From positions 42,730-106,729 of the forward strand of contig CACEIH010000001.1 in NCBI GenBank assembly GCA_902559565.1: a stretch of 64,000 nucleotides of DNA, given 5' to 3'. How positions within the stretch are numbered: the first letter of the stretch is position 1; every line of letters begins with the position of its first letter. Source of the DNA: an uncultured Pelagibacteraceae bacterium. Its GTDB lineage: Bacteria > Pseudomonadota > Alphaproteobacteria > Pelagibacterales > Pelagibacteraceae. Positions 10,761 to 33,164 of this stretch are shown piece by piece. A model generated the notes under the pieces. It was not told the origin of the DNA and ran no database searches. It saw only the letters and a list, made by a program, of their open reading frames with translations. The translations under genes were made by a program, and so were the position numbers.

Positions 10761-12161
10761 TTACCTGGTTGCTGACGAAACAGCTCTTTCGTCTTTTTTA
10801 GCAGTTTCCATTATTTCATAGTCAAGTCCTGCAATCTCCACATCACGAGGTATTCTTAATTTACCCATTCCATGAAGAACTTTTGCAATAACATAACCTG
10901 GTATTAGTCCAAGAACTACGAACATAATTAATGCTCCTAGGAATTGTCCTAATGGGTTAATTGTAGCATAAGTTGTTCCGTCCCACATAGCACCAACACT
11001 GTAACCAGATGATGGGTAACCATTAAGAACAAAACCACAAATCACTAGACCAATAAATCCAGCATAACCATGTACTGCAACTGCACCAACTGCATCATCA
11101 ATTTTGAACTTACGTTCAACCCAGTAATGTAGTTTGTATGAAATCACAACACCGATCATACCAATAATCATTGCTTGAATTGGATGATATAAATCATTTC
11201 CAGCTGAAGCACATATGATACCTGCTAGTCCACTTGAGTATGTCCAGAAAGGATCACCTTTTGCAATCCAATAACCAGCTAATAATCCTCCTGATAATGA
11301 CATCAAGAAGTTAAAAGTAATACCACTAAGTGTAGTAGGGGTTACGTATATGTTTGTAGCTGTCCAATAACTTATGCCTTCCATACCGTACTCAGGTCCA
11401 AGATCAAAGATTGGTATATTACATGCAGCGTAGAAGCCCCAGAAACCAGTATAAATTAGAAATAATCCAATTGTAACTAACCAAGGATTTCTTGGTCCTA
11501 TGTTTCTTGGTTCACCACTAGATGAAAATTTTCCAATTCTTGGTCCTAAAACCATAAGAACACCTAAAGCAAATCCACCCGCAATTGCGTGAATTACTCC
11601 TGATGCATAAGCATCATGGTATCCTAGAAGTTTAAGCATCCAGCCGTCAAAGTGCCATCCCCAAGCAGCATCAATTGTCCAGAAAACTGAACCAATTGCA
11701 ATTGCTAAAATTCCAAATGCAAAAGTTGTAATTCTTTCAATGATTGCTCCTGAAACGATGGAAGCAGCTGTCCAAGAGAATAATAGGAATGCAGCCCAGA
11801 AGACACCTGAAATGTGGTCTCCTAAGTTAACAGCCATTAAATCACTTGTTGCCGTATACCAAGTAGCACTAAATGCAGACTCATCTGTAATTAGAGCAGT
11901 ACTTTCATTCATTATTGATGGTGCTAATCCCGGTCCTGTTGGGAAAGCCCAATAAATCCACCAACCAAATAAAAACCAAGTTACTGTTACCAAAGGTATC
12001 AGCATCGTGTTTTTCATCAGAGTATGTTGGTGATGTTTGTATCGAGAAGCTCCAACCTCATACATACAGAAACCGACGTGAATTAAAAACATCAGTACCA
12101 CTGTTACCCAGTAGTAAAATTCTGTAAATATAGTAGTAAGAGCACCTAACTGATCAGTCAT
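10761..12161 (-). CDS. amt: Amt-family ammonium/methylamine transporter
   Basis: SIVSGAIIER, SGVIHAIAG and DDAVGAVAVHG (twin His), LGPRIGKF, EIAGLD; about 11 TM segments. Confidence 0.93.
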   Translation of the reverse strand: MTDQLGALTTIFTEFYYWVTVVLMFLIHVGFCMYEVGASRYKHHQHTLMKNTMLIPLVTVTWFLFGWWIYWAFPTGPGLAPSIMNESTALITDESAFSATWYTATSDLMAVNLGDHISGVFWAAFLLFSWTAASIVSGAIIERITTFAFGILAIAIGSVFWTIDAAWGWHFDGWMLKLLGYHDAYASGVIHAIAGGFALGVLMVLGPRIGKFSSSGEPRNIGPRNPWLVTIGLFLIYTGFWGFYAACNIPIFDLGPEYGMEGISYWTATNIYVTPTTLSGITFNFLMSLSGGLLAGYWIAKGDPFWTYSSGLAGIICASAGNDLYHPIQAMIIGMIGVVISYKLHYWVERKFKIDDAVGAVAVHGYAGFIGLVICGFVLNGYPSSGYSVGAMWDGTTYATINPLGQFLGALIMFVVLGLIPGYVIAKVLHGMGKLRIPRDVEIAGLDYEIMETAKKDERAVSSATR

Positions 12162-12285: not shown

Positions 12286-12702
12286 TTAAAATTTTAAGTA
12301 TGCTTTTTTCAAATCAACAAGAGGATGTTTTGGAGACATTTGAAACTTAACTAATAGTTCTCTGGCAATCATATCTCTATCTTGTTGATTGTTCGGTAAC
12401 TTAATTGACTTTGGAATTGTAACCCAACCATTTGCATTTCTACAGAATACTGCAGGTCTACCTTCTTCATATCCCATATGCACATCTTCTAACCAATTAA
12501 GATCGTCCCATCCCATTGCTTCAACATATTTTTTTAGAAAAGGAGTCATCTTTGAATAATCTGGGAGGAGGTTAACATCGTATCTATAACCGATTGATTG
12601 ACCAATCATCTTTTCTCTAGCAGTTTCTTTTTTCTTTCCTAACTGTTGGTCTTTATCAGCAACTGATTTTGAAACTTTCTTTTTATTTTTTTTCTTAGCC
12701 AT
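12286..12702 (-). CDS. Hypothetical protein, last gene of the mgs operon
   Basis: 138-aa ORF 8 nt downstream of mgsC with AGGA RBS; no family recognised. Confidence 0.75.
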   Translation of the reverse strand: MAKKKNKKKVSKSVADKDQQLGKKKETAREKMIGQSIGYRYDVNLLPDYSKMTPFLKKYVEAMGWDDLNWLEDVHMGYEEGRPAVFCRNANGWVTIPKSIKLPNNQQDRDMIARELLVKFQMSPKHPLVDLKKAYLKF

Positions 12703-12710
12703 AAATTCCT

Positions 12711-14129
12711 TTAAATTTTATGAAAGTTATCTACTCCAACAGTATAATTAGTTCCCGCTAAAGGAACTTTAGCTAAAGCTGAAGCTTCAGATGTTAGTGC
12801 AGCTAAATCCTCAGGCTCTAATGAGTGAATATTTGTTTTTCCACATGCTCTAGCTAATAATTGAGCTTCTAAAGTCATTGAGTGAAGATAATTGTAAACT
12901 CTTAGTGCAGCATCATCAGGATTTAATCTAGCTCTTAGTTTAGGATCTTGAGTTGCAACACCAACTGGACATCTTCCAGTGTGACAATGGTAGCATTCAC
13001 CTGCTTTTACACCCATTTCTTTTTCAAAGTTTGCTTCTGGAATATCTTTATTACAATTAAGTGCAATCATAGATCCAGTTCCGATTGCTATCGCATCAGC
13101 ACCTAAAGCTAATGCTTTTGCCATGTCAGCACCATCTCTAACACCACCTGCGTAAATTAAAGTTACTTTTCCAGTTTTACCTACATCATCTAATGCTCTT
13201 CTAGCTTCTCTAATTGCTGCAATACCAGGAATACCAGTGTTTGCTGCTGCAATGTGTGGTCCAGCTCCTGTTGATCCTTCCATACCATCAAGGTAAATTG
13301 AATCTGGATCACATTTTGCTGCCATACGAACATCATCATAAACTTTTGATGCACCTAATTTTAATTGAATTGGAACTTTATTTTTTGTTAATTGTCTTAA
13401 CTCTTCTACTTTTAAAGCTAAATCATCTGGACCTAACCAATCAGGATGTCTTGCAGGAGATCTTTGGTCAATACCAGACGGGAGTGATCTCATTTCAGCT
13501 ACTTGGTCAGTAACTTTTTGACCCATTAAGTGACCACCCATTCCAACTTTTTGACCTTGTCCAATAAAAACTTCTATTCCATCTGCAAGTTGTGCATGAT
13601 GTGGGTTAAATCCATATCTTGATTGAATACATTGGTAAAACCATTTCTCTGAATATCTTCTTTCATCAGGTATCATTCCACCTTCACCTGAACATGTTGC
13701 ACTACCAGCCATTGTTGCTCCTCTTGCGAGAGCAGTTTTAGCCTCGTAAGATAATGCTCCAAAACTCATACCAGTAATATAAACCGGTATGTCTAATTCA
13801 ATTGGATTTTCACATCTTGGACCAATAACAGTTTTGGTTTCACATTTTTCTCTGTATCCTTCGATTACAAATCTTGTAAGTGTGCCTGGCAAGAAAACTA
13901 AATCATCAAATGTTGGAATTTTTTTCATTAATGCCATTCCTCGCATTCTGTATCTTCCCAATTGTGATTTTATATGAATGTCATCAATTACATCAGGAGT
14001 AAAAATAGCATTGTGTCCTAAGAGGCTTTTGTTTCTTCCGCCATTTGAGCTTAAATGAACATCAGCTTTTCCACCAACATTACCATTCTTTTTTATTTTG
14101 CCATTTTTTTTCTTTTTTTTCTTTGCCAT
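12711..14129 (-). CDS. mgsC: N-methylglutamate synthase subunit C (FMN-binding glutamate synthase family, GlxD)
   Basis: GMSFGALS, GEGG, SPARHPD, DGMEG, CYHCHTGRCPVGVATQDP (3Fe-4S). Confidence 0.88.
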   Translation of the reverse strand: MAKKKKKKNGKIKKNGNVGGKADVHLSSNGGRNKSLLGHNAIFTPDVIDDIHIKSQLGRYRMRGMALMKKIPTFDDLVFLPGTLTRFVIEGYREKCETKTVIGPRCENPIELDIPVYITGMSFGALSYEAKTALARGATMAGSATCSGEGGMIPDERRYSEKWFYQCIQSRYGFNPHHAQLADGIEVFIGQGQKVGMGGHLMGQKVTDQVAEMRSLPSGIDQRSPARHPDWLGPDDLALKVEELRQLTKNKVPIQLKLGASKVYDDVRMAAKCDPDSIYLDGMEGSTGAGPHIAAANTGIPGIAAIREARRALDDVGKTGKVTLIYAGGVRDGADMAKALALGADAIAIGTGSMIALNCNKDIPEANFEKEMGVKAGECYHCHTGRCPVGVATQDPKLRARLNPDDAALRVYNYLHSMTLEAQLLARACGKTNIHSLEPEDLAALTSEASALAKVPLAGTNYTVGVDNFHKI

Positions 14130-14983
14130 TAAATTGCTCCTTTTTTCTCAGTAGGTTCTAAATTATCGTAATTCCAAAGTTTTTTACCAGCTACTATTTT
14201 TTTCATTTTACTAACGTCAAATTTCTCGCCAATTTCAGCAACCTTTAGCTTTCTTTTTAACCAATCTTGATCGCTTTTCGTTAATTCGGCGTCTACTGCA
14301 TCACTACCATAAGAGCCAATTTCTCCACCTACGAAAATTGTCCCATCATACATAGAGTCACCTAAATTAATTCCAACGTCTCCTAATATAATTATTCTAC
14401 CTCTTTGCATCATAAAACCAGTAAAAGCACCAGCGTCTCCACCAATAATTATGGTTCCACCTTTCATATCAATACCAGTTCTGGCACCAACACTACCTTT
14501 ACAAATTAGATCTCCACCTCTGATTGCGGCTCCAAAGCATGATCCCGCATTCTTTTCTATTACCACTTTACCAGCCATTAAATTTTCAGCACAAGACCAA
14601 CCAACTCTTCCATTGATTCGTACTGTTGGTCCATCACATGATCCCATTCCAAAGTATCCTAAACTACCTTCAAAAATTAAATTTAATTTATTTAAAATAC
14701 CAACTCCCAAACTATGTTTACCTTGTGGATTTTTAATAACTATAGTTCCATAACCTTGGCTCATTAAATTATCTATTTCTTTATTTGCATCTGCAGCTGT
14801 CATGTCTTTAACATCCAAATCAGTTCTTTTGTTAAAGTCTACGTCGTAAGTTCCAAAGTAATAAAAATTTTCTGCTTCATCAGGATTAAAAAACTTCTGT
14901 TGTGTTCTACCAGTTAGAACTTCTGTATGCATACCCATAGCTTGGGCTTTGGTTTTTTTTGTAACGTTTTTTATATTTGCCAT
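14129..14983 (-). CDS. mgsB: N-methylglutamate synthase subunit B (GXGXG/FwdC-like, GlxC)
   Basis: NPQGKHSLGVG and Gly-rich beta-helix repeats (GIDMKGGTIIIGG, GFMMQRG, GDSMYDG). Confidence 0.85.
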   Translation of the reverse strand: MANIKNVTKKTKAQAMGMHTEVLTGRTQQKFFNPDEAENFYYFGTYDVDFNKRTDLDVKDMTAADANKEIDNLMSQGYGTIVIKNPQGKHSLGVGILNKLNLIFEGSLGYFGMGSCDGPTVRINGRVGWSCAENLMAGKVVIEKNAGSCFGAAIRGGDLICKGSVGARTGIDMKGGTIIIGGDAGAFTGFMMQRGRIIILGDVGINLGDSMYDGTIFVGGEIGSYGSDAVDAELTKSDQDWLKRKLKVAEIGEKFDVSKMKKIVAGKKLWNYDNLEPTEKKGAI

Positions 14984-15915
14984 ACTTTTACCTCTCCATC
15001 AAATGGATCATAAGTATCAATTTCTTGTGGTAAGATTGATCTAATTGCAATCTCCTCTGACCCCATTGCAACTAAATCATCAGACTCATAAAGAACCAAA
15101 GGCTTTGCAGCCATAGTATCTTTTGCCATTCCCAAAGAGTCTTTTGTAGCAACAAAATAAGTGAAAACGCCATCTAACCCTATTAGAGAATCTTTCATTC
15201 CTTCCTCTAAAGAAGCGCCCTCTCTCATTTTTTGAGCAATGTAAACGGCGATGAGTTCTGAGTCACACTCAGACATAAATCTCATTCCTTTATTTTCTAA
15301 AGCTCTTCTATTGTTCCAGTAATTAGTTAATTGTCCGTTATGAACTACCGACACATCACTAAATGGGTAGCCCCAAAAAGGGTGAGCTGATTTTATATCT
15401 ACTCCAGATTCTGTTGCCATTCTAGCATGACCAATTGCATGAGTACCAACGAGTTTATCTAAATTATATCTATCACATACCATTTTAGCGTTACCAAGAT
15501 CTTTTATGACCTCTAGAGATTTTCCCATTGAAAGAATTTCAACACCAGGAATACTTTCTATTTTTTGTGAAAACTCCAATAAATCTTTTTTATTGTATTC
15601 AATTTCATATCTTAAAGAGTATGGAAGAATTCTCTCTTCTTTAACAATTTTTGCTCCCATTTCTGAAAGGTAACTATCTACAATTTTTTTTCTTTCATCA
15701 TAAACTGACACATCTTCTGCAACAGATGTACTTCCTTCACCAACATTTTCACCTACTTTAAATCTCATGATGAAATTTTTTCCATCAGTTTCTCCATACA
15801 AAGCATAACCTGTAGAGTCTTCTCCTCTATGTTTTAGAGCTTGCAACATTCCTTGTAGCTCATGACCAACTTTTGAAGATTTTCCTCTATGAATTAATCC
15901 TGCTATTCCGCACAT
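14971..15915 (-). CDS. mgsA: N-methylglutamate synthase subunit A (class II glutamine amidotransferase, GlxB)
   Basis: N-terminal MCGIAG nucleophile, HRG.DSTG, GHARMATES, AHPF, HNGQL.N. Confidence 0.88.
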   Translation of the reverse strand: MCGIAGLIHRGKSSKVGHELQGMLQALKHRGEDSTGYALYGETDGKNFIMRFKVGENVGEGSTSVAEDVSVYDERKKIVDSYLSEMGAKIVKEERILPYSLRYEIEYNKKDLLEFSQKIESIPGVEILSMGKSLEVIKDLGNAKMVCDRYNLDKLVGTHAIGHARMATESGVDIKSAHPFWGYPFSDVSVVHNGQLTNYWNNRRALENKGMRFMSECDSELIAVYIAQKMREGASLEEGMKDSLIGLDGVFTYFVATKDSLGMAKDTMAAKPLVLYESDDLVAMGSEEIAIRSILPQEIDTYDPFDGEVKVWQI

Positions 15916-15940
15916 ATACTTTTCCTTTTTATTTAATTTA

Positions 15941-17410
15941 TTACGGTAAACAATCTAAATAAGTATCTAGATCCCATTGAGTTGTTGCACCTAAAAACTT
16001 TTCCCATTCATCATTTTTATACCAATGAAATATTTTGTACATTTCATCTGGCATAGCCGATTGAATAACTTTATCTTCAGAAAGTCTTTCAAGTGCTTCA
16101 CCTAAACTTAAAGGTAATTTTTTAACATCCTTACCTGCTTTTTGCGCTTCATATATATTTCTAGACTCAGGTTTACCAGGATCAATTTTATTTGAGATTC
16201 CATCATCAAATGCTTTTAATAAAGCTGCTCCCATTAAATAAGGGTTATGCATTGAGTCTACAGATCTATATTCAAATCTTCCAGGAGCAGAAACTCTCAA
16301 ACCACATGTTCTGTTTTGATATCCCCAGTCAGCATAAACAGGTGCCCAAAAACCTTGATCCCACAATCTTCTATAAGAGTTTACTGTTGATGAACCTATA
16401 GCCGTTAATGCTGGTAAGTGCTTCATAACTCCACCAATTGATTGTAATCCTATTTTACCTGGTAATTGCATATCTTTTGTGTCAGGCATAAATGTATTTG
16501 TTCCACCTTCAACATAAGTAAAAACTTCTTCGACTCCTGGAAGAGTTTTATGTCCAAGTTTGTTAACTACGTCTTTTCCACCTTTCCACAAAGACATATT
16601 TGTATGACAACCACTTGCAGAAACACCCATAAATGGTTTTGTCATAAAACAAGCAATCAATCCATGTTCTCTTGCAACTTGCGCACAAATTTGTCTGTAT
16701 GTTGAAAGTCTATCTGCATTTCTTAATACATCATCATACATCCAGTTAAGTTCTAATTGACCAGGCGCATCTTCGTGGTCACCTTGAATCATATCAAGAC
16801 CCATTGCATTAGCGTACTCAATAACTTTCATAAAAACAGGTCTTAATGACTCAAATTGATCGATATGATAACAGAAAGGTTTTGAAAACCCTTTTCCGGT
16901 AGGCGTACCATCCTCATTTTTAGTAAGCCACATCATCTCAGGCTCTGTACCAACTCTCATTTGGTAACCATGTTTTTTCTTAAATTCTTCAGCAATTATT
17001 CTTAAATTTCCTCTACAATCAGAAGTTAAGTGTCCACCTGGATTTTCTCTTTCTTCTCTATTTCTAAAACAAGTGCAATATACTCTTCCTACTCTTTTGT
17101 CCCAAGGTAATTGTACGAAAGTTTCAGGGTCAGGAATTCCAACTAATTCCTTAGCTTCAGGACCATAGCCGATATAATTATTGTGACGATCTAAAAATAA
17201 ATTAGCAGTCGCTCCATAAACTAATTGAAAACCTTTTTCAGCTGTTCTTTCCCAATGATCTGCGGGAATACCTTTACCAACTACTCTTCCAGTAACTGAA
17301 ATGAATTGAAAATAAATATAAGTTATTCCTAATTCATTAATTTTATCTCTTACTTTTTTAACTAATTTTGCTCTACCTGGCTGGTTAACATGTTTTTCTA
17401 GATCTGTCAT
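15941..17410 (-). CDS. Second glutamine-synthetase-family gamma-glutamyl ligase, substrate unknown
   Basis: GTEPEM, GDHEDAPGQLELN, FMTKPF, GCHTNMSLW, NSYRRL, WGYQNRT, FEYRSVD..NPYL. Confidence 0.88.
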   Translation of the reverse strand: MTDLEKHVNQPGRAKLVKKVRDKINELGITYIYFQFISVTGRVVGKGIPADHWERTAEKGFQLVYGATANLFLDRHNNYIGYGPEAKELVGIPDPETFVQLPWDKRVGRVYCTCFRNREERENPGGHLTSDCRGNLRIIAEEFKKKHGYQMRVGTEPEMMWLTKNEDGTPTGKGFSKPFCYHIDQFESLRPVFMKVIEYANAMGLDMIQGDHEDAPGQLELNWMYDDVLRNADRLSTYRQICAQVAREHGLIACFMTKPFMGVSASGCHTNMSLWKGGKDVVNKLGHKTLPGVEEVFTYVEGGTNTFMPDTKDMQLPGKIGLQSIGGVMKHLPALTAIGSSTVNSYRRLWDQGFWAPVYADWGYQNRTCGLRVSAPGRFEYRSVDSMHNPYLMGAALLKAFDDGISNKIDPGKPESRNIYEAQKAGKDVKKLPLSLGEALERLSEDKVIQSAMPDEMYKIFHWYKNDEWEKFLGATTQWDLDTYLDCLP

Positions 17411-17439
17411 TTTCCCCTCAATGAATTAATATTTATCCA

Positions 17440-17468
17440 AACGTAGCTGAAAAATTTATTAGTGTCTA
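17440..17468 (-). promoter_or_regulatory. Candidate sigma70 promoter for the GS2-mgsABC operon
   Basis: Minus strand TAGACA-N17-TACGTT upstream of a GAGGGG RBS. Confidence 0.45.
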
Positions 17469-17478
17469 GGCTTGAAGT

Positions 17479-18825
17479 TTAACTCCAAGGGAATGGACTG
17501 TTCGAAGTAGGGTGAAGTTCTCCCTTCTCGTAACGGTTGAATCTAAACGGCTTTAATAAATCACTCTCAGTACCAAGAATTTCTTTTGCTACAAGTTCTC
17601 CAACTCCAATCATCTTATATCCATGATTTGCATCTGCTATCATGTAAACGTTTTCAAAAAATCTATCGAAGATTGGAAATGAATCTGGAGTCATACATCC
17701 AAGACCACCCGAAGGACCTTTTCTATATAAATCTGATTTTCCTTCAAATCTTTTTTGGCAGTGTGCTAATGCTGAACACCACATTTCACTAAATGCATCT
17801 GTAGTTTGATACTCAGGTGACTCTATTCCATAAGGGTCAACATTCACTTCATCAAAATGTTTTTTAACAATGTAAGGAGATGTTCCTCCCTGAACACCTA
17901 AACCTTCAATATCTGGTTTGTAATAAATTCCCCAAATTTTATCTGTAATTAATTTTTTTGTTTTATCTGAATATAATGGAGCCGTAGAATCAACGTGAAC
18001 CACAGGTGGTTGTTTACCATCATTTGTTTTCAAAAAATCTGGTTCTACTCCAATAACTCCTTCTTGAAGCATCCAATATGTCCACATGTCAGTGACATGC
18101 ATCTTTCCATCTTTACCTTTGATGTTCGCAGTTTTAGGTAATTCCAACATGTTCCAGAAATCTCTTGCCCATGGTCCTGCTCCAATTACTACTTGTTCGC
18201 AATCAATAGTACCTTTATCAGTTTCTACACCTGTTACTGCTTTACTATTACTTCCTCTTTTAAAACCTGTAACTTTTACTCCCTTCATAACTTGAACACC
18301 ATTCGATGTAGATTTATTTTCAAGAGCTTTTATTGAGTCTTTGTTAAATGCATATCCACCTTTTTTCTCGTGAAGAATTGATGTAATACCTTGTGCTTGC
18401 CAATCATCAAAAATACCTTTCATATAATTAGCACAATCTTTCTCACCTTCTATAAATGTAGACTCGTATCCAATTGCTTTTTGTTGTTTATAAATGCTTG
18501 CAACATCTTCATGCATTACTTCAGGTGATATTTGTAAATAGCCAACTGGATTATATTTAAATGCTTTTGGATCACTTTCCCAAACAGAAACTGAATGAGC
18601 CATTAATTCTCTCATTGCTGGTTGAAAATAATTATTTCTTACTACACCACAAGCTATTCCACTTGCACCAGCAGCAGTATCTTTTTTTTCTAAAACTATG
18701 ATGTCACCAGGATTTTTATAAGTTTCTGATAATTTCCATGCAGTACTTAAACCGTGGATACCTCCACCAATTATAACTACTTTTGCTTTTGTCGGTAATG
18801 ACATATTCATATCTTTATTTTTCAT
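17479..18825 (-). CDS. FAD-dependent oxidoreductase (DAO/monomeric sarcosine oxidase family)
   Basis: VIIGGGIHG FAD motif, AGASGIACG, GAGPW, TPDSFPIFD, HGYKM. Confidence 0.85.
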   Translation of the reverse strand: MKNKDMNMSLPTKAKVVIIGGGIHGLSTAWKLSETYKNPGDIIVLEKKDTAAGASGIACGVVRNNYFQPAMRELMAHSVSVWESDPKAFKYNPVGYLQISPEVMHEDVASIYKQQKAIGYESTFIEGEKDCANYMKGIFDDWQAQGITSILHEKKGGYAFNKDSIKALENKSTSNGVQVMKGVKVTGFKRGSNSKAVTGVETDKGTIDCEQVVIGAGPWARDFWNMLELPKTANIKGKDGKMHVTDMWTYWMLQEGVIGVEPDFLKTNDGKQPPVVHVDSTAPLYSDKTKKLITDKIWGIYYKPDIEGLGVQGGTSPYIVKKHFDEVNVDPYGIESPEYQTTDAFSEMWCSALAHCQKRFEGKSDLYRKGPSGGLGCMTPDSFPIFDRFFENVYMIADANHGYKMIGVGELVAKEILGTESDLLKPFRFNRYEKGELHPTSNSPFPWS

Positions 18826-18885
18826 GCGACGTAAATATATAATTTTTTATATATATAAAATATATAAGTAATTAATTACTTATCC

Positions 18886-19236
18886 TTAGAAACTTAGATT
18901 TTTAAGAGTTGCCAGATATTGATTGAATTCCTCAATAAATGCTTCACTAGGTTTGATATGTTTTTTTCTTTGATCACCAGAAGTTTTTTCTAGGAAAAAA
19001 AAACCTTTTTCACAAGCTTCATTTATCATTAAAGCTGATTTTGGTCGTGAAGTTTTAAATAGTTTTGTTTTTAATTCCTCTACAGTTAGATTTTCTTTAT
19101 ATTTAAAAGCATGCATTACTAGAAGCATCATATGATAATGAGATGGTGACTTTCTGAAAAAATAATTACTAGATGTGTGCGAAAGTTTCATTTGATCTTC
19201 CCAAAACTCTAATAAATCTTTAGTTGTTTTTGTCAT
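18886..19236 (-). CDS. Small MarR-like winged-helix protein
   Basis: LTVEEL...SRPKSALMINEA helix pair and DQRKK wing (DxR); start overlaps tdm stop. Confidence 0.55.
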   Translation of the reverse strand: MTKTTKDLLEFWEDQMKLSHTSSNYFFRKSPSHYHMMLLVMHAFKYKENLTVEELKTKLFKTSRPKSALMINEACEKGFFFLEKTSGDQRKKHIKPSEAFIEEFNQYLATLKNLSF

Positions 19237-21575
19237 TAAGATCTTACTCTAGTTTTTTTAGGGTCAAAATGTGGAAATGTTACAACTTTTGCAGAAATTC
19301 TTTTTTGATGACCATCAATTTTTCCAACCTCAACTTCAGTTCCAGGCTCAGAATATTGAGTATCAATTCTACATAAAGCTATATTTTTATTTAAAGTTGT
19401 TGATAAACAACCGCTTGTAACTATTCCAACCTGAGATCTTCCAACATGCACACAATCACCATGGCCAGCATGTTCTTTTCCAATAAGTTCTAGACCAACA
19501 AGTTTTTTTTGTGGATTGGCCTTTCTTTCTTTTAAAATTTCTTTTCCTATAAAATCTTCCTCTTTAGTTTTAAGTGGAACTGCAAAACCAATTCCTGCTT
19601 CAAAAGGATCTTGCTGTCCATCAAACTCATTACCAAATAAAATTAAACCTGCTTCTATTCTTAGTTTATCTAAAGCCGCAAACCCAGCAGGAATCAAACC
19701 ATGTTCTTTTCCAGCTTCCATAAGCTTATCCCATACTTCAGGAGCATGTTTTGGATGACACCAAACTTCATAACCAAGTTCACCAGTATAACCTGTTCTT
19801 GAAACAATTAATGGAATACCTTGAAGTTCTTCAACTCTACAAATTGTAAATCTAAACCATTCTAATTCATCTATCGATGGTTGGGTAGGAGGAGTAAAAA
19901 TTAGTTTTTTTAAGATTTCTCTACTCTTAGGTCCTTGAATAGAAACGTTACTAATTTGATCTGTTGAGTTTTTTACATTTACTTTAAATTTTTTTTTCTT
20001 AGCTACTTCTTTTAACCATTCACCTGCATATTCGTCTCCACAAATCCATCTAAAACCAGTTTCACTTAATCTTAATAATGTACCATCATCAAACATCATT
20101 CCATTTTCATAACACATTGCAGAATACACAACTTGACCAACAGAAAGTTTTTTGATGTTTCTTGTTAATGTATAATTCATTAACTCTTCAGCATCTGGTC
20201 CAATAATTTCAAATTTTCTTAAAGAAGATAAATCAATTAGAACAGCTTTTTCTCTGCACGCATTATATTCTTCAACTACACCATGTTTGGTATAATCATT
20301 TGGTAACCAAAAACCTCGAGCATCAATAAAGTTTCTAGTTAATTTTGAGGTTCTTTCATAAAAACCAGAATTTCTAGTAAGTTTTTTTTCTGAATCTGTT
20401 TTCATTCTAAAAGCAAATGATTTTGAAAATTCTTTTTTTTTGTCATAAGTTCTAACAAAAATATCAGTTGGATTCCATGAATTACATGCATCTATATCAC
20501 TTGGACATGCAGTAGTTCCAATGGTTAGATCTTTCAATGCCCTAAACATTACATAGTCACCTGGTCTTGCAAATGACTCATCAGAAATAACAGAATTTAA
20601 TCCTGAAGCTGAAGTATTAAAAAATAAATTTATAGCATGCCAGCCTTTTTGTTTTTGAACACCATATTTAGACATTGAATTTGTTAAATTATCAGAGCAG
20701 TTTGGGTGACCAAAATAACCTGCATCTTCATAATATTTTGAAGTACAAGCAAGGTTAAACGTATCATGTTTGCCAACAGTATCTCTAATTACCTCAACTA
20801 ATGGTTCATGATCAGTATCATAAAATTTTGAAAATAGTCCTGGTCCAGGAAAAGTATTACCCATAAAAGTTCTTGTTGTTTGCCAATCGAGACCTTTCTC
20901 AATTTTTTTATCAAGCTTTCTTGTATCAAATGCCACAAAATCCGAACATTGTCTTCCTGCTGGACTTATAACTTGAATATAATCACCTTCATTTACTTGA
21001 AAAGAAATTGCAGTTTCTCTGTCAATATTCTTTTCGTAATTAGGTTCATAAACCGGATCAGGTATAATCGATAATTCTTTATCATTAACAATTTTTGCTC
21101 TTTTTATAAATATTGTTAAATCACTTGAGGGATTTTGATCACTCACCAACATATCATTTTGTGGAGCTGAAAAAATTACGTAGCATTTATCTTTTGATTT
21201 AATTTTTATTTTTTCTCCACTTGGTGTTTTATCGTCAAATAAAATCGATGATTTAGATTTATTTATGTCTAAATTTCTTTTCTTTAATTGAAGATTTGTA
21301 ACTAAAGAACTTTCATCTTTTCTATTAAGTATTTCCTTAATAAAACTTTTTTTACTATTTTCTTTTTGATTTAAAATTCCAAGTTCAGATTTTCCGTCTT
21401 TATCAAAACAAACTATTTCACAAATTTGATTTCCTTCATCATTAATAATTTCTATTTCATCATCTGGAAAAACTTGCAAACCAGTTAGTCCACCCGCATT
21501 TACAACATGTCTTTCAACTCCAGGTGGTAGCACATTTAAGCCTGGCTCTTTAATATTTAAAGTAGTTTGCGACAT
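19236..21575 (-). CDS. tdm: TMAO demethylase (DUF1989 plus aminomethyltransferase)
   Basis: GRQCSDF, HDTFNLAC..YYED.GY.GH.NCSDN, TACPSDID; C-terminal GcvT domain (SRTGYTGELGYE, LRIEAG); adjacent to tmoX. Confidence 0.92.
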   Translation of the reverse strand: MSQTTLNIKEPGLNVLPPGVERHVVNAGGLTGLQVFPDDEIEIINDEGNQICEIVCFDKDGKSELGILNQKENSKKSFIKEILNRKDESSLVTNLQLKKRNLDINKSKSSILFDDKTPSGEKIKIKSKDKCYVIFSAPQNDMLVSDQNPSSDLTIFIKRAKIVNDKELSIIPDPVYEPNYEKNIDRETAISFQVNEGDYIQVISPAGRQCSDFVAFDTRKLDKKIEKGLDWQTTRTFMGNTFPGPGLFSKFYDTDHEPLVEVIRDTVGKHDTFNLACTSKYYEDAGYFGHPNCSDNLTNSMSKYGVQKQKGWHAINLFFNTSASGLNSVISDESFARPGDYVMFRALKDLTIGTTACPSDIDACNSWNPTDIFVRTYDKKKEFSKSFAFRMKTDSEKKLTRNSGFYERTSKLTRNFIDARGFWLPNDYTKHGVVEEYNACREKAVLIDLSSLRKFEIIGPDAEELMNYTLTRNIKKLSVGQVVYSAMCYENGMMFDDGTLLRLSETGFRWICGDEYAGEWLKEVAKKKKFKVNVKNSTDQISNVSIQGPKSREILKKLIFTPPTQPSIDELEWFRFTICRVEELQGIPLIVSRTGYTGELGYEVWCHPKHAPEVWDKLMEAGKEHGLIPAGFAALDKLRIEAGLILFGNEFDGQQDPFEAGIGFAVPLKTKEEDFIGKEILKERKANPQKKLVGLELIGKEHAGHGDCVHVGRSQVGIVTSGCLSTTLNKNIALCRIDTQYSEPGTEVEVGKIDGHQKRISAKVVTFPHFDPKKTRVRS

Positions 21576-21614
21576 TTTTAAAATATATCTTTATATTATA
21601 TAAATATCTATCTG

Positions 21615-21674: not shown

Positions 21675-22643
21675 ATGAAAAACAAATTACCGTTATTAAT
21701 CGGTGCAATTGTTGTTATTGCGGGTCTTGTTTTCTTCATGGGTGGAGGAGATAAAACTGCAAAGAAATCAGGCGATAGCAGTGCCCCTATAGTGATTCCA
21801 ACACATAACTGGTCAAGTCAGATTGTTATGGCTTACGTTATTGGTGGAATTTTTGAAAGTATGGGAAACAACGTGAGTTATGTTAATGCTGACTCACAAG
21901 CTGTTTATGAGTCAATCAGAATTGGAGACGTAACTATTTCTCACGAAGTATGGGAGTCTGCATTCGGTAAATCATTCACAACTGCCTTGGATAAAGGTGG
22001 TTTATTAGATTGGGGTGATCATGAGGCAAGAACACTTGAGGATATGGGTTATCCTAATTGGGTTGCTGACAAAGGATTATGCCCAGGTTTACCAGACTGG
22101 ACAGCTTTGAAAAATCCAGACTGTGCTAAAAACTTTGTAACACCTGACTCTGGTGGAAAAGGACGTATGTTAGAAGGTCCACAAACTTGGCATGGTGACT
22201 TAATACCTCAAAGAGTAGATGCTTTAGGATTAGGCGATCTTTGGATGGTTAAATTTGCTGGAAGTGCTGATGCTCTTTGGGCAGAATTAGCAGCAGCTGA
22301 AAAAGAAGGAAGAGGAACTATTATTTTTAACTGGACACCAAACTTTACAGATGGTGCTGGTTTTACATTTATTGACTTCCCTCCTTATACAGCGGGTTGT
22401 AGACCAGAAGATGGTGGAGATGGAAAATGTGGTTCTCCAGATGGTTATTTGAAAAAAGCGGTGCATGAGGATTTTCCAAAAACTCATCCAGGTGCGGCTG
22501 CAGCTTTCAAAAAAATGTCATTTACTACAAGTCATATCGGAGCAATGGCTGCTTTAGTTGATATTGACAAAATGACTCACGAAGATGCTGCCAAAAAGTG
22601 GTTAGCTGATAATGAGTCAGTTTGGAAACCATTTACTAAATAA
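21675..22643 (+). CDS. tmoX: TMAO ABC transporter substrate-binding protein
   Basis: OpuAC/ProX fold: PTHNWSSQ, HEVWE, CPGLPDW.AL, FNWTPNF; between tdm and tmm. Confidence 0.88.
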   Translation: MKNKLPLLIGAIVVIAGLVFFMGGGDKTAKKSGDSSAPIVIPTHNWSSQIVMAYVIGGIFESMGNNVSYVNADSQAVYESIRIGDVTISHEVWESAFGKSFTTALDKGGLLDWGDHEARTLEDMGYPNWVADKGLCPGLPDWTALKNPDCAKNFVTPDSGGKGRMLEGPQTWHGDLIPQRVDALGLGDLWMVKFAGSADALWAELAAAEKEGRGTIIFNWTPNFTDGAGFTFIDFPPYTAGCRPEDGGDGKCGSPDGYLKKAVHEDFPKTHPGAAAAFKKMSFTTSHIGAMAALVDIDKMTHEDAAKKWLADNESVWKPFTK

Positions 22644-22665
22644 GGTAAATAACAATTAAATTTTT

Positions 22666-22702
22666 AAATCTCCCCCAACATAAGTTGGGGGGGATTTTTT
22701 TT
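22666..22702 (+). terminator. Rho-independent terminator after tmoX
   Basis: AAATCTCCCCCAAC-ATAA-GTTGGGGGGGATTT stem running into a T tract. Confidence 0.88.
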
Positions 22703-22713
22703 AATTTAAATTA

Positions 22714-23172
22714 ATGATTAAATATTATTTAGGTATATTAATAAGTTTATTATTTTTTGATAAGTTATTAGCATCAAATGTAAACATTCAAGAAGATATA
22801 GATGTTAGTTTTAAATGTACTTTAGAAAAAAAAATAATAAAGAATTCAGAATATAATTATAAAGTATTTTTAGCTAAAGATTTAAACGCAAAAGATTTAA
22901 ATAAATTTGAAATTAAATCACAACGACCTGAGATACTTAATATTAATGGATTGTCATCATTTCTTTCTCAAACTTTAATGTTAAATGTTAAAATTGTGAA
23001 TAAAGATGTCATTTTGTTTAAAGCTATAGATAATAACTCTAATTACTCAGAGTCAGGTATTATTGATAGAAAAACAGGTGAATTAGTTCACGAAATAACA
23101 AAAAATATAAAAAGTGAGAATTCTGAAAAAGATATTACATTTTATTCATGTAGCAAGAGGAAAAATGTCTGA
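22714..23172 (+). CDS. Hypothetical exported protein
   Basis: Signal-peptide-like N-terminus, one Cys near each end, IDRKTGEL motif. Confidence 0.65.
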   Translation: MIKYYLGILISLLFFDKLLASNVNIQEDIDVSFKCTLEKKIIKNSEYNYKVFLAKDLNAKDLNKFEIKSQRPEILNINGLSSFLSQTLMLNVKIVNKDVILFKAIDNNSNYSESGIIDRKTGELVHEITKNIKSENSEKDITFYSCSKRKNV

Positions 23173-23206
23173 TTTTTTTTTTAATCAATTTGTGTAAGAT
23201 ATAAAC

Positions 23207-23584
23207 ATGAAAAAATTTTTAATTAGTTTGATTGTAAGTTTATTATTTGTTTCTGCTGCTTTGGCGCGTAGCACTGGATGCAAAGAAGGTAATTGCGAAA
23301 ATGGTTATGGTAAATGGGTTTATACAGATAAAACTACTTATGAAGGAGAATGGGTAGGAACAAAAAAAAATGGTCAAGGAGTTGAGACTTGGCCTAATGG
23401 ATACATTTACAAAGGTGAATTTAAAAACAGTGAATGGAGTGGCAAAGGTATTTTAACTTTTCCTGATGGATCAACATATGAAGGAGAATGGGCCAAAGGT
23501 TTTATGAACGGAAAAGGAACATTTACTTCATCTGACGGAAATCAAAAGTCAGGAATTTGGAAAAATGGAAAGTTACAAGAGTAA
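23207..23584 (+). CDS. Exported MORN-repeat protein
   Basis: Signal peptide, GCKEGNCENGYG, repeats YEGEW..G.G, YKGEF..G.G, YEGEW..G.G. Confidence 0.88.
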   Translation: MKKFLISLIVSLLFVSAALARSTGCKEGNCENGYGKWVYTDKTTYEGEWVGTKKNGQGVETWPNGYIYKGEFKNSEWSGKGILTFPDGSTYEGEWAKGFMNGKGTFTSSDGNQKSGIWKNGKLQE

Positions 23585-24135
23585 TGTTAAAAGAAAATTA
23601 TTTTAATAAGATCAAACAATGGCCAGAGTTTGTAAAACAAACAGGAGGTTTAGTAATTTTAATTTTAATTATAATTTCATCTTTTTTTGTTTTAAATATT
23701 ATGTTTGGGGAAGGTGAGGAATTGGTTAAAAAAATGAAATTAGAGGAAGAAAGAAAAGCCCAAGAAAAGAAATTAAGTCAACTAATATCAAAACTTCCTT
23801 CAGGGATATTAGTAACTTTTGATGGCACAGATCATTATAAATTAACAGATGAAGTGTATGAACAAGTTTGCAAAGCTACAAAACTTATTCCTCAAAGAGC
23901 AATAATGGGGGCAAATTTTTTAAATTTTAGAGCACATGAAATTTATACAATTAATGGAAATAAAATTAGTGATACATTTGTTGAATGGAACGAAGAAAAA
24001 AATAAGTGTTTTGCAGGTTTTACAGTAAGTGGAAAAAATGTTGGGGTAAATGAGTCAATTACTGTCGAAGGTGAAGCATTAAGTTTCTTGAGCACAGGAA
24101 TTGATACAAGAGTATATTATATTAAAAATTTTTAA
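23584..24135 (+). CDS. Hypothetical single-TM protein
   Basis: TM helix then coiled coil; start placed at ATG 23584 (TAATG overlap with MORN gene stop) instead of 23557. Confidence 0.7.
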   Translation: MLKENYFNKIKQWPEFVKQTGGLVILILIIISSFFVLNIMFGEGEELVKKMKLEEERKAQEKKLSQLISKLPSGILVTFDGTDHYKLTDEVYEQVCKATKLIPQRAIMGANFLNFRAHEIYTINGNKISDTFVEWNEEKNKCFAGFTVSGKNVGVNESITVEGEALSFLSTGIDTRVYYIKNF

Positions 24136-24197
24136 GGAGGAAAAATAATTATATAGATTTAATTTTATCTTAATATCATATAACGTTATTAAAATTT

Positions 24198-25229
24198 ATG
24201 TCTAACTCAGTAATTAAATGTGAAAATGTTTTTAAAATTTTTGGAGCAAATGCCAAAAAAATGCTTCAAGAATCCAACGGGAATGTTGATGCTAAAACTT
24301 TTCAAGAAAATGGATGCATTGTTGGTGTGAATAACGCTTCATTTGAAGTTGCAAAAGGAGAAATGTTAGTTGTGATGGGCTTATCTGGCTCAGGTAAATC
24401 GACATTATTAAGATGTATTTCCAGATTAACTGATGCTACAGGTGGAAAAATCTATATTGAAGGTCAGGATTTATTAGAATTAAACAACAAAGAATTGATA
24501 GATCTTAGAAGAAATAAAATGGGGATGGTTTTTCAAAGTTTCGCTTTACTACCTCACAAAACTGTTGTGGAAAATATTGCTTTTCCACTCCAAATTAAAG
24601 GAATAGAAATCGAGGACAGTATTACTAAGGCTATGGACATGGTAAAATTAGTTGGTCTTGAAGGAAGAGAAAATTATTTTCCAAGAGAACTTTCAGGCGG
24701 ACAACAACAAAGAGTAGGGATAGCAAGATCATTAGCTGTTGAACCAGACATATGGTTTCTAGACGAACCTTTCTCAGCTTTAGATCCTTTAATTCGAAAA
24801 GAAATGCAAGATGAGTTCTTAAGACTTCAAGAAAAACTACAAAAAACAATTATGTTTATAACACACGATTTTGATGAAGCTTTAAAACTTGCTGACCGAA
24901 TTGCAATTATGAAGGACGGCATCATTGAGCAATTGGATACGCCAGCTAATATTGTTTTAAATCCAGCAACAGAGTATGTGAGAAAATTTACCGAAGAAGT
25001 GCCTAGAGAAAAAGTATTATTAATTGAGGATGTAATGGAAAAATCAGACACTAAAGATCTCAGTGAACTTAAAGTTTCAAAAGATGAAACTATAGAGAAT
25101 GTCGCTGAAAAAATTCTTTCTCAAGATAAATCAGTAGCTGTTATAGATAGTAACAATAAAATTGTTGGCTCTATTAATCCAACAAAGATAATTAATACAG
25201 TTTTTGGGGGAAGAAAAAATAGTAGTTAA
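24198..25229 (+). CDS. tmoW: TMAO/betaine ABC transporter ATPase (ProV-like)
   Basis: MGLSGSGKST, LSGGQQQRVG, LDEPFSALDPLIR. Confidence 0.88.
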   Translation: MSNSVIKCENVFKIFGANAKKMLQESNGNVDAKTFQENGCIVGVNNASFEVAKGEMLVVMGLSGSGKSTLLRCISRLTDATGGKIYIEGQDLLELNNKELIDLRRNKMGMVFQSFALLPHKTVVENIAFPLQIKGIEIEDSITKAMDMVKLVGLEGRENYFPRELSGGQQQRVGIARSLAVEPDIWFLDEPFSALDPLIRKEMQDEFLRLQEKLQKTIMFITHDFDEALKLADRIAIMKDGIIEQLDTPANIVLNPATEYVRKFTEEVPREKVLLIEDVMEKSDTKDLSELKVSKDETIENVAEKILSQDKSVAVIDSNNKIVGSINPTKIINTVFGGRKNSS

Positions 25230-25232
25230 GTT

Positions 25233-27386
25233 ATGGAATTTATCAAAAAATATCCAAAAGCATTTCAATGGTTATTTTTATTAATTGTTTTTTTTGCATT
25301 ATGCTTTGCAATCGAAGTTCCAGAAACATATAAATTTATCCGCGGTCAAGCAGAGTTTGTAAAAGATCCTAATCAAAGTTATTATATTTTTTTAGGTAAA
25401 GAAGTAAGATATTATCCTTTTGATGTCTTTTGGAGATTGCCCCCATTACTTGGGTGGCTACCTATCTGGATAAATGATTCATTATTTTTTTTAATGAATG
25501 AATGGCTACCGATGGAGTTTTGGAATGAAGATACTCAATCGTATAAAACTCGACCTTTAGTTCTACAAATTACAAGAGAAATAACTTCAATAATGACATT
25601 TTTGATTGAACTAATCAGAGATATTTTGTTAGGAGGTCTTGAAACAATTGTAGCTTTCACGAGCTGGGATTTTGTAGGCTCTAACTCTTGGGCAAAAATG
25701 CCTGGCCTCCCATGGACCATAGTTGCAGCTGGTGCAGCAATATTGGCATATAACTTAAGTGGCAAGGGTCTAGCTTTATTTGCAGGGTTAGTAATGGTTT
25801 ACATTTCCATATTTGGTCAATGGAAACCTTCAATGCAAACCCTATCTTTTATATTAGTTGCAGCACCATTGTCATTTGTTTTTGGTTTAGGTTTGGGGAT
25901 TGCAGCATTTAAAAATAAGCGTGTAGAAAAAGCTTTATATCCAATATTGTTAGTGATGCAGACAATGCCTCAATACGCAGTGTTAGTTCCTGCACTTGTT
26001 CTTTTTGGGGTTGGTGATCATGCAGCAGTAATTATAACTATGATCGTTGCTGTTCCCCCTATGATATTGTTAACGTTAATAGGTTTAAGAGCAGTACCAC
26101 CAGAGGTTATTGAAGCTGCCAAGATGAGTGGGTGTAACAATTGGCAAATCATGTTCAAAGTATTAATTCCAACTGCAAGAAGAGATATATTAATTGGAGT
26201 AAACCAAGTCATTATGGTGTGTTTTTCTATGGCGGTTATATCAGCTTTTATAGGGGCAAAAGGTTTAGGATTTAATTTATTACTAGCATTAAATCAGCTT
26301 AATATTGGCTTAGCATTAGAAGCAGGTCTTTGTATAAGTTTAATTGCAATATTATTAGATAAGATGTCTTTGGCTTGGGCAAATAAACAAGTTGATTATT
26401 TTGGTAATCTAACTTTTTTTGAGAGAAATAAAAATACATACTATTTTGGTATCGCTGTAGCAATAGGTATTGTTTTAGCATATTTAGGATCTTTTTATTT
26501 TAAAGAGGGATATAATTATTTATTTGAAGTTCCACATAACAAAGGGATATCCACAGCCGATTTTTGGAATAAAGGAGTTGATTGGATTTTTGATACTTTT
26601 TTTGTTTATATTAAAGCATTTAATACATGGTTAATTGTTGAAGTGCTCCAACCAATGCGAGCTTTGTATTTACGAATGCCGGCAGTAGCAACTTTAGTTT
26701 TAGTTGTTGGAGCAGGATATATAATTGGAGGAATTCGTTCGGCTTTAGTTGTTTGTGGATTAACTTTGTTCATTGCTTTAAGCCCGTGGTGGGATAGAGC
26801 TTTAGTTACAACGTATATGGCAACTTTTGGTGTAATTGTATCATGTGTTATTGGATTTACAGTTGGAACATTATGTTTTCAAAACAAACATTTAACTAGC
26901 TTTATGTTAGGTGTTTGCGATATTTTTCAAACATTTCCATCATTCGTATATTTAATTCCAGTTATGATGCTGTTTGGAATAACAGATACATCAGTTTTAA
27001 TAGCAGTTATAGTTTATGCAACAATACCAGCAACCAGATATACAATTGAGGGACTGAGAAGTGTTCCAACCGCTTTACATGATGCAGCAACAATGTCTGG
27101 AGTAAATAAATTTCAAAGGTTAACTAAAATTGAATTTCCTCTAGCTTTTCCTCACATGATGCTTGGTTTAAATCAAACAATCGTATTTGCATTATTTATG
27201 GTTATTATTGGAGCATTCATTGGTACTGAGGATTTAGGACAATATATTCTTAAAGCACTATCAGATAAAAACGGTGCAGGAATCGGATTAACGCTTGGTA
27301 TTTGTGTAGCGTTTATTGGTTTAATATTTGATAATTTAATTAGAACTTGGGTAGAAAAAAGAAAAAAACACTTAGGTATTGATTAA
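25233..27386 (+). CDS. tmoV: TMAO ABC transporter permease with two fused ProW-like domains
   Basis: Two permease units (MQTMPQYAVL...IEAAKMSG and FQTFPSFVYL...HDAATMSG); 717 aa. Confidence 0.85.
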   Translation: MEFIKKYPKAFQWLFLLIVFFALCFAIEVPETYKFIRGQAEFVKDPNQSYYIFLGKEVRYYPFDVFWRLPPLLGWLPIWINDSLFFLMNEWLPMEFWNEDTQSYKTRPLVLQITREITSIMTFLIELIRDILLGGLETIVAFTSWDFVGSNSWAKMPGLPWTIVAAGAAILAYNLSGKGLALFAGLVMVYISIFGQWKPSMQTLSFILVAAPLSFVFGLGLGIAAFKNKRVEKALYPILLVMQTMPQYAVLVPALVLFGVGDHAAVIITMIVAVPPMILLTLIGLRAVPPEVIEAAKMSGCNNWQIMFKVLIPTARRDILIGVNQVIMVCFSMAVISAFIGAKGLGFNLLLALNQLNIGLALEAGLCISLIAILLDKMSLAWANKQVDYFGNLTFFERNKNTYYFGIAVAIGIVLAYLGSFYFKEGYNYLFEVPHNKGISTADFWNKGVDWIFDTFFVYIKAFNTWLIVEVLQPMRALYLRMPAVATLVLVVGAGYIIGGIRSALVVCGLTLFIALSPWWDRALVTTYMATFGVIVSCVIGFTVGTLCFQNKHLTSFMLGVCDIFQTFPSFVYLIPVMMLFGITDTSVLIAVIVYATIPATRYTIEGLRSVPTALHDAATMSGVNKFQRLTKIEFPLAFPHMMLGLNQTIVFALFMVIIGAFIGTEDLGQYILKALSDKNGAGIGLTLGICVAFIGLIFDNLIRTWVEKRKKHLGID

Positions 27387-32894: not shown

Positions 32895-33164
32895 ATGCTT
32901 CATATCAAATGTCCACATTGTGGAATGAGATCTCAAAATGAATTTTCTTATGGTGGTGATGCAAGCGTAAAAAGACCAGAGTTAGGTAAAGAAATCTCAG
33001 ATGAAGAGTGGAATAATTTTGTATACAACAGAAAAAGTCTAAGAGGAAAACATTGGGAGCTTTGGCAACATTTATCAGGATGTAGACAATGGATAAAAGT
33101 TGAAAGAGATACTGCAACTCACGAAATTTTTAAAACACTTAAAGCTAATGAGGAAATTTCATAA
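32895..33164 (+). CDS. soxD: Sarcosine oxidase delta subunit (or MgdB)
   Basis: CPHCG.R...EF.YGG, WQH..GC..W...RDT.TH Zn site. Confidence 0.92.
   Translation: MLHIKCPHCGMRSQNEFSYGGDASVKRPELGKEISDEEWNNFVYNRKSLRGKHWELWQHLSGCRQWIKVERDTATHEIFKTLKANEEIS

Follow-up and report, generated by a model that had tools for sequence, protein, structure and literature searches.

How do SAR11 bacteria use dimethylamine (DMA)? The genes for DMA monooxygenase (dmm) are absent from SAR11, and a bottleneck at DMA has been proposed (Lidbury 2017, PMC5520151). From the lack of dmm it has been argued that DMA accumulates in surface waters and contributes to marine aerosol, but strain HTCC1062 uses trimethylamine N-oxide (TMAO) as sole nitrogen source without dmm, and a Dmm isoenzyme has been supposed for it (PMC8918994). 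The product of SAR11_1304 is a suspected amine demethylase whose role in DMA use is given as unconfirmed (Smith 2013, PMC3870248; Lidbury 2017, PMC5520151), and in their passages on this point the accounts of 2013, 2017 and 2022 leave the use of DMA by SAR11 open (PMC3870248, PMC5520151, PMC8918994).

We analysed a window of 64,000 nucleotides from an uncultured Pelagibacteraceae bacterium (assembly GCA_902559565.1, 767 kb and 59% complete; contig CACEIH010000001.1, positions 42,730 to 106,729). Beside tdm, the gene for TMAO demethylase, the window carries a gene unit whose core is GS2, encoding a second ligase of the glutamine synthetase (GS) family, followed by mgsA2, mgsB2 and mgsC2, encoding a paralog of N-methylglutamate synthase, and by orf138, which encodes a conserved protein without known family. 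A DAO-family flavoprotein is a frequent accessory. This cluster probably has some role in the metabolism of DMA. An earlier sequence-only reading of the window had called the pathway a candidate for an undescribed one. The DMA gap, growth on TMAO without dmm and the suspicion about SAR11_1304 were already in print, but we found no paper describing the module or the DMA route proposed here, in a literature search that did not include the term dimethylglutamate and from which subscription journals were largely missing.

A conserved gene core beside tdm

The open reading frames (ORFs) claimed by that reading all lie on the minus strand where it had placed them. Their order is tdm (19236..21575), an ORF of 116 amino acids (aa), the flavoprotein gene (17479..18825), GS2 (15941..17410), mgsA2 (14971..15915), mgsB2 (14129..14983), mgsC2 (12711..14129), orf138 (12286..12702), amt, two small ORFs, gmaS and a gene for diaminopropionate ammonia-lyase, and the intergenic gaps from GS2 through orf138 are 25, -13, -1 and 8 bases. 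The product of tdm, the presumed source of DMA, has the DUF1989 and GcvT architecture in Pfam and scores 1081 bits against NF053776, just under the cut-off of 1100; the tdm of genome G389 scores alike.

Our main survey covered 401 alphaproteobacterial genomes (G000 included), with an identity of at least 65% as the criterion for a GS2 orthologue. GS2 is found in 38 of them. The genes mgsA2B2C2 follow it in 34; of the remaining four loci, two run into a contig end (G176, G259) and two do without these genes (G087, G335). The gene orf138 stands directly after mgsC2 wherever the contig extends. A close homologue of the flavoprotein is present in only 28 of the 38, and the core is therefore GS2-mgsA2-mgsB2-mgsC2-orf138. 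The gene unit reaches further than the one first read from the sequence, in which GS2 was paired with ordinary mgsABC: the invariant partner is the paralogous Mgs2 together with orf138, and the unit can be extended to amt, which neighbours it in many loci. A wider sample of the phylum has GS2 in 3 of 251 genomes (G000 included), only one of them new.

The orf138 product is 65-93% identical across an alignment of 33 rows. It has no Pfam match and no Foldseek match at E<=0.001, and the best VIA Z is 2.7, a result that does not by itself establish a new fold. Two other genes recur near the core. A protein of about 200 aa without Pfam match, with a WQCRxRQ motif, adjoins orf138 in many loci outside SAR11 (L169:9431-10030, L124:3601-4203, L173 and L175; a cluster of 16 loci) and is absent from the window, and a carbon-nitrogen hydrolase lies next to GS2, or in the interval that separates it from tdm (L170:6899-7759, L143:2881-3834), where it could serve in the repair or hydrolysis of a dimethylamide.

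The best 80 of 523 flavoprotein loci are all from Pelagibacteraceae at 97-100% identity, so the source of the window is a SAR11 bacterium. Its gene order agrees with SAR11_1303 to SAR11_1310 of HTCC1062, for which the listing runs 1302 opuAC, 1303 AMT, 1304 sox, 1305 glnT, 1308 gltB2, 1310 amt, 1313-1315 glxBCD, 1316 glnT and 1317 ygeX (Smith 2013, Sun 2011; PMC3870248, PMC3160333). By gene order and annotation rather than by sequence comparison, tdm corresponds to SAR11_1303, the flavoprotein to SAR11_1304 ('monomeric sarcosine oxidase'), GS2 to SAR11_1305 ('glnT') and mgsC2 to SAR11_1308 ('gltB2'), within a shared order of tmoX, tdm, sox, glnT, gltB2, amt, glnT and ygeX. The portions of these papers that deal with the locus assign no substrate and do not treat 1305-1309 as a unit (PMC3160333, PMC3870248). 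HTCC1062 keeps the canonical glxBCD (1313-1315), which is absent at the window locus.

Contigs from four RNA runs cover 29-30 of the 30 bins of positions 14400-21600, a form of data from which level, strand and a single transcript cannot be deduced. A promoter scan is at chance level (46 found, 59.8 expected), and an Rfam search gives no match.

A second ligase and a second synthase

The window also carries a canonical gmaS (8960..10285, minus strand), whose product scores 630.3 against TIGR03105, above the cut-off, and has RhGmaS as its best structure match (7cql, E=1.6e-172). GS2 scores 310.9 against the same family, with a cut-off of 469.6, and 253 against TIGR00653 (glutamine synthetase I), with a cut-off of 429. 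It is 30% identical to the GmaS of the window and forms a clade of its own, apart from GmaS. The two GS paralogs had been called clearly unlike, and we agree: the contrasting motifs GCHTNMS and GCHAHIS, an insertion of roughly 30 aa and the GFWAP loop are all present. We rejected the HxN versus HxH motif as a diagnostic of GS2, as an ordinary GS (8oow) has GMHTNTS.

As in GmaS, a tryptophan (Trp355) replaces the flap glutamate of GS, and Asp50' is absent, with LVYGA in its place. The amine pocket of RhGmaS, consisting of K30', Y147, Q175, D177, E179, E186, N188 and the flap Trp300, is kept in full (K46, Y181, Q209, D211, E213, E220, N222 and W355), and the differences are Y174 to I, N176 to G and D148 to H. 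These residues suggest that GS2 is a ligase that gamma-glutamylates amines, and the exchanges of Asn176 for Gly and Tyr174 for Ile could make its amine pocket wider. RhGmaS has a Km of 16 mM for DMA versus 27 uM for monomethylamine (PMC7948447), so a dedicated DMA ligase, as we predict GS2 to be, would be useful.

Mgs2 has the three subunits of MgsABC, a class II amidotransferase (mgsA2, GATase_6), a GXGXG subunit (mgsB2, PF01493) and an FMN barrel (mgsC2, PF01645). Identities to their canonical counterparts in genome G030 are 31, 36 and 53%. In a tree of 35 rows, whose 15 C2 rows are a subset of the available C2 sequences, MgsC2 forms a separate, long-stemmed clade with support of 100/99, and the canonical side, that is MgsC encoded beside a TIGR03105 gmaS, has 100/100. 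Judged by identity and tree, the stretch 12711-15915 is a paralog of canonical mgsABC, so that the name mgsABC given to it in the sequence-only reading has to be withdrawn. MgsC2 has Fe-S cysteines (C359, C379, C382 and C387) that are invariant in 29 of 29 rows; we rejected them as a mark of Mgs2, since 5 of 11 canonical MgsC have them.

The two synthases coexist in some genomes and occur singly in others. Twelve of the 38 GS2 genomes, and also G335, have both sets; G389 and G030 carry a second mgs set, which lies beside canonical gmaS. Among 36 Pelagibacter genomes, with the Mgs2 type assigned by a band of 52-57% identity and not gene by gene, Mgs2 is found in 26, the canonical type in 6, both in 5 and neither in 9. 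Canonical mgsABC lies between amt and gmaS in only 2 of the best 80 SAR11 loci, many of which are truncated, is absent from five of five SAR11 genomes of 1.2-1.3 Mb, and was not found in the incomplete source assembly.

The closest known system is the N-methylglutamate pathway of GmaS, MgsABC and MgdABCD, as described for M. extorquens DM4, R. pomeroyi and M. universalis (PMC6237917, PMC13390433). It likewise combines an amide ligase, a three-piece enzyme resembling glutamate synthase (GOGAT) and a flavoprotein of the sarcosine oxidase family, in the logic of GS/GOGAT. The module differs from it in the distance of GS2 from GmaS, in the separate clade of Mgs2, in the additional, invariant orf138, in a single-chain flavoprotein without D, A and G subunits, and in its coexistence with the canonical set.

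Some related clusters point beyond methylamines. The nearest paralogs of GS2 (53-60%) sit in clusters of two GS genes with a P450, an aldehyde dehydrogenase, a gamma-glutamyl hydrolase or an enzyme like trimethylamine (TMA) dehydrogenase. In L260 (G048), L081, L082, L206 and L207 the GS2 paralog forms a tandem pair with another, divergent GS-like gene, beside a P450 or a TMA dehydrogenase-like enzyme with Ala at position 60. These resemble clusters in which an amine is glutamylated before oxidation, as is reportedly the case in the piperidine cluster of Pseudomonas KU43P, whereas the partner of GS2 itself is an Mgs-like enzyme and not a P450 and a hydrolase. Further Mgs-like triplets (L171, L176-L180; about 52% identical to both MgsC types), most of them followed by divergent GS-like ligases, lie beside ATP-binding cassette (ABC) transporters and probably apply the same logic to other amines. 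Some loci have a third type of Mgs next to canonical gmaS, composed of mgsA, a fused mgsBC (650 aa) and a GltD-like Fe-S flavoprotein of 831 aa (L201:3753-10556, also L202 and L194), which suggests an N-methylglutamate synthase driven by NAD(P)H.

The accessory flavoprotein

The flavoprotein matches PF01266, and its predicted structure (pLDDT 91) has the fold of SoxB and monomeric sarcosine oxidase (MSOX), with a template modelling (TM) score of 0.72. Compared with the sarcosine oxidase family (SoxB 3ada/2gag, MSOX 1el5, L-proline dehydrogenase 1y56_B and dimethylglycine dehydrogenase) it shares the fold (TM about 0.7) and an Arg/Tyr/Lys set, but it is only about 20% identical, scores far below the cut-offs of TIGR01373 (SoxB; 73.9 against 529) and TIGR01377 (monomeric sarcosine oxidase; 38.5 against 479.65), and has no folate-binding partner, nor any of soxD, soxA and soxG, in its operon. 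In MSOX the FAD is covalently held at Cys315, in a stretch across which the two proteins give no reliable alignment.

In sarcosine oxidase, Arg52, Tyr55 and Lys348 bind the substrate carboxylate (PMC12582975). Their counterparts here, mapped through the SoxB alignment and motif rather than by residue-level superposition on MSOX, are R63, Y66 and K404, which are conserved across the module-linked rows. Because these ligands are kept, an N-methyl alpha-amino acid would suit the site better than free DMA or the N-methyl of an amide, and we predict the flavoprotein to be an N,N-dimethylglutamate demethylase. No close homologue was found in a search of plasmids, and a fusion of flavoprotein and GcvT, for which 7 long homologues were scanned, was not found.

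Co-occurrence with DMA-forming enzymes and exclusion of dmm

With a criterion of E<=1e-150, tdm is found in 33 of the 401 genomes, 24 of the 38 with GS2 and 9 of the 363 that lack it. In 12 of the 24, representing 9 families, no more than about 16 kb separates the core from tdm. A profile search with PF11927 covered every genome with GS2 (38) or tdm (33), and a match was accepted as dmm only if a reductase gene stood next to it. This is the case in four genomes (G093, G105, G344 and G374), none of which has GS2. Of the 24 tdm genomes with GS2, none therefore has dmm, against 4 of the 9 without GS2 (p=0.003, kinship being ignored). If three genomes with tdm-like genes of 39-41% identity, below the cut-off, are left out (G258, G288 and G380), the proportions become 0 of 24 against 4 of 6 (p=0.0005). 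PF11927 matches in two GS2 genomes were rejected as dmm, since they have no reductase neighbour (G353, at 27% identity, and G030).

The positions of the two systems also correspond: in G093 and G105 the dmm genes immediately precede amt-mgsABC-gmaS, a position that the module occupies in G389. DmmDABC, which would fill the same metabolic gap, is described as a haem oxygenase system that releases free monomethylamine (PMC5520151), whereas the proteins of the module are unrelated to it and include no oxygenase, and the amine would stay on glutamate. The flavoprotein by itself shows no such exclusion (dmm in 1 of 19 versus 3 of 14, p=0.29; G344 has both), and we rejected it as the sole substitute for dmm.

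The absence of a DMA monooxygenase noted by the sequence-only reading stands for the window and, within the limits of a 59%-complete sequence, for the source assembly, in a search whose positive control gave no match. In four other SAR11 genomes of 1.2-1.3 Mb dmm was not found either, and here the positive control, G374, was matched; a search for the reductase in five genomes, made without a positive control, found nothing.

Where tdm is missing, other DMA-forming enzymes are found in some genomes. Among 15 GS2 genomes without tdm, a TMA dehydrogenase bearing Tyr60, which we take to mark TMA rather than DMA dehydrogenases, is present in 4 and a gene like the beta subunit of dimethylformamidase (DMFase) in 4, making 6 genomes in all. 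In G103, which is 100% complete, the module lies 7 kb from a TMA dehydrogenase (E=1e-298 to 1djn, Tyr60) with an electron-transferring flavoprotein, with folD and formate dehydrogenase genes on the other side, and neither tdm nor dmm, nor a canonical gmaS or mgsC, was found in this genome. It is the clearest tdm-less case. In G222 a DMFase-like gene lies 1.7 kb from orf138. TMA dehydrogenase and tdm stand together on one 10-kb contig of G028 (L245/L249), and the tdm-like genes of L171, L220 and L222 (39-41% identity, below the family cut-off), which have a betaine-type ABC importer of their own, possibly encode a demethylase for another N-oxide or quaternary amine.

A possible pathway and its alternatives

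We tentatively favour a route in which every substrate is predicted from gene families, paralogy, residues and distribution. GS2 would join DMA to glutamate, giving gamma-glutamyl-dimethylamide; Mgs2 would move the amine onto 2-oxoglutarate, giving N,N-dimethylglutamate; the flavoprotein would strip one methyl, giving N-methylglutamate; and a soxBDAG-type dehydrogenase (Mgd) would complete the conversion to glutamate. Free methylamine need not form, and the nitrogen would end in glutamate and the methyls in formaldehyde or methylene-tetrahydrofolate (methylene-THF). In genomes that have lost canonical mgsABC, as most Pelagibacter have, the products of GmaS (from methylamine) and of GS2 (from DMA) would both go to Mgs2, and where the flavoprotein is absent another enzyme of the sarcosine oxidase family would perform both demethylations. 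A soxB-type gene is present in 39 of 40 GS2-bearing genomes searched, G401 being counted through its locus L062. The window itself carries soxB-(D)-A-G (31638..36744, plus strand; TIGR01373 and TIGR01372 passed), a heterotetrameric sarcosine oxidase family member and candidate N-methylglutamate dehydrogenase. SAR11 has two sox operons, and which of them is Mgd is left unsettled in the account of Sun 2011 (PMC3160333).

Several observations weigh against this route. Mgs2 is the sole Mgs in 21 of the 36 Pelagibacter genomes and gmaS is retained in all five checked, so Mgs2 must act on methylamine there, and its Fe-S cysteines do not separate it from the canonical enzyme. Ten of the 38 GS2 genomes have no flavoprotein, and 10 genomes without GS2 carry close homologues of it. 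The exclusion test rests on four dmm genomes, and related genomes are not independent. Neither a TMA dehydrogenase nor a DMFase-like gene was found in 9 of the 15 tdm-less genomes, for two families whose background rates we do not have, and the case of G103 would be weakened if its TMA dehydrogenase also turned over DMA. We know of no precedent for an Mgs-type enzyme that forms N,N-dimethylglutamate. In HTCC1062 under nitrogen limitation SAR11_1304 goes up while the SAR11_1305 and 1308 proteins go down to 0.67 and 0.66 (PMC3870248), and TMAO induces gmaS (PMC8918994), as expected if free methylamine arises.

The occurrence of Mgs2 as the only Mgs, together with an orphan gmaS in many core genomes, fits the view that GS2 and Mgs2 merely duplicate GmaS and MgsABC for methylamine, that the flavoprotein is a single-chain N-methylglutamate oxidase, and that the cell excretes DMA or deals with it by other means. 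GS2 retains most of the GmaS pocket, the carboxylate residues fit N-methylglutamate equally well, and some flavoprotein homologues carry the automatic name 'methylglutamate dehydrogenase subunit A'. Such isoenzymes would leave unexplained why streamlined genomes retain two ligases, why both Mgs sets occur in 5 of 36 Pelagibacter and in a dozen GS2 genomes and G335, and why the module is linked to tdm, TMA dehydrogenase and DMFase and excludes dmm; we consider this unlikely, though not to be dismissed. If instead the substrate were another small amine, such as ethylamine or a secondary amine, made into an N-alkylglutamate and dealkylated by the flavoprotein, the additional pairs of Mgs-like and GS-like paralogs in other contexts, the place of the nearest GS2 paralogs in clusters for other amines and the absence of tdm from 14 of the 38 GS2 genomes would be accounted for. 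The module adjoins tdm, tmm, tmoXWV, fhs, folD and formate dehydrogenase genes across families, and we give this explanation little weight.

The remaining alternatives keep DMA as the substrate and change the chemistry. The sequence-only reading had the flavoprotein demethylate either gamma-glutamyl-dimethylamide or free DMA, and while the DMA role it gave to the cluster gains from the co-occurrence with tdm, the exclusion of dmm and the adjacency to other DMA-forming enzymes, both reactions now look less likely, given the conserved carboxylate ligands and the GS2 genomes without flavoprotein. Demethylation of the amide to gamma-glutamylmethylamide, with Mgs2 as an ordinary N-methylglutamate synthase, would suit an Mgs2 that serves GmaS and GS2 alike, as well as the gene order flavoprotein-GS2-mgs, and the GS2 paralogs beside P450 and gamma-glutamyl hydrolases indicate that oxidation of glutamylated amines is a strategy in use. 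Flavin amine oxidases require a basic amine, amide nitrogens being poor substrates, and the carboxylate site would put the alpha-carbon end and not the amide methyl over the flavin, which makes this version distinctly unlikely. Direct oxidation of DMA to methylamine and formaldehyde by the flavoprotein, as the supposed Dmm isoenzyme, with GS2 and Mgs2 capturing the methylamine, accords with the strong induction of SAR11_1304 under nitrogen limitation (PMC3870248), with that of gmaS by TMAO (PMC8918994) and with the place of the flavoprotein beside tdm in SAR11. The retained carboxylate ligands, the lack of exclusion between flavoprotein and dmm, and two tdm genomes that have the core beside tdm and no close flavoprotein (G064 and G355) leave it only a slim chance. 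An Mgs2 that, together with orf138, demethylates by itself, its FMN oxidising the bound dimethyl species, electrons leaving through the Fe-S cluster and N-methylglutamate being released, would make the flavoprotein optional, in accord with the composition of the core and with the invariant cysteines. These cysteines are ancestral, however, and occur in 5 of 11 canonical MgsC as well, and we know of no precedent for such an enzyme; its chance is equally slim.

Neighbouring genes

On the far side of tdm lie tmoX, tmoW and tmoV (21675..27386, plus strand), with OpuAC and ProV/ProW-type matches, which we infer from their position beside tdm to encode the TMAO ABC importer; tmoX and tmoW are separated by three unrelated small ORFs. 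Divergent tmoXWV (about 41-56% identity), without tmm beside tdm, are found in the SAR11 loci L007, L019 and L071. Profile searches show that tmm, encoding trimethylamine monooxygenase (27394..28725, minus strand; NF058570, 745), fhs, encoding formate-THF ligase (29827..31509, minus strand; NF010030), soxB and soxA lie inside the window.

The 116-aa ORF (18886..19236, minus strand) had been labelled a winged helix-turn-helix protein. It has no Pfam match at E<=0.001, helix-turn-helix families included, and its best structure-sequence match is SarX at E=0.045, so that a regulator of MarR/SarA type is possible at most. Among the loci fetched it matches only those of SAR11. In many other genomes the module is preceded by a gene for a GntR/FCD regulator (L143, L146, L117, L136, L131, L130, L134, L168 and L173), in the place taken by the 116-aa ORF in SAR11.

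The Amt-family transporter (10761..12161, minus strand; TIGR00836, 176 bits, below the cut-off) is likely of the methylammonium type. Between amt and gmaS lie two small minus-strand ORFs with a hydrophobic stretch (10518-10748 and 10303-10458), and a GC hairpin (10478-10501) sits between them. The 76-aa one of these two ORFs matches 66 fetched loci, including the dmm-type L214 and L215, and is likely a small partner of the window's Amt family.

Implications

Judged from its genes, the module is a novel version of the N-methylglutamate pathway and offers the strongest candidate for the missing DMA step in the most abundant marine bacteria. It could possibly represent an oxygenase-free DMA pathway via N,N-dimethylglutamate, an intermediate not reported before as far as we found, run by a 'DMA-GOGAT' with a new subunit family in orf138, present in most Pelagibacter and in about a tenth of the sampled Alphaproteobacteria. 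The proposed route puts names to five or six genes and two intermediates, and counts of 'mgsABC' in marine metagenomes mix two enzymes. If true, the pathway would remove the proposed marine DMA bottleneck.

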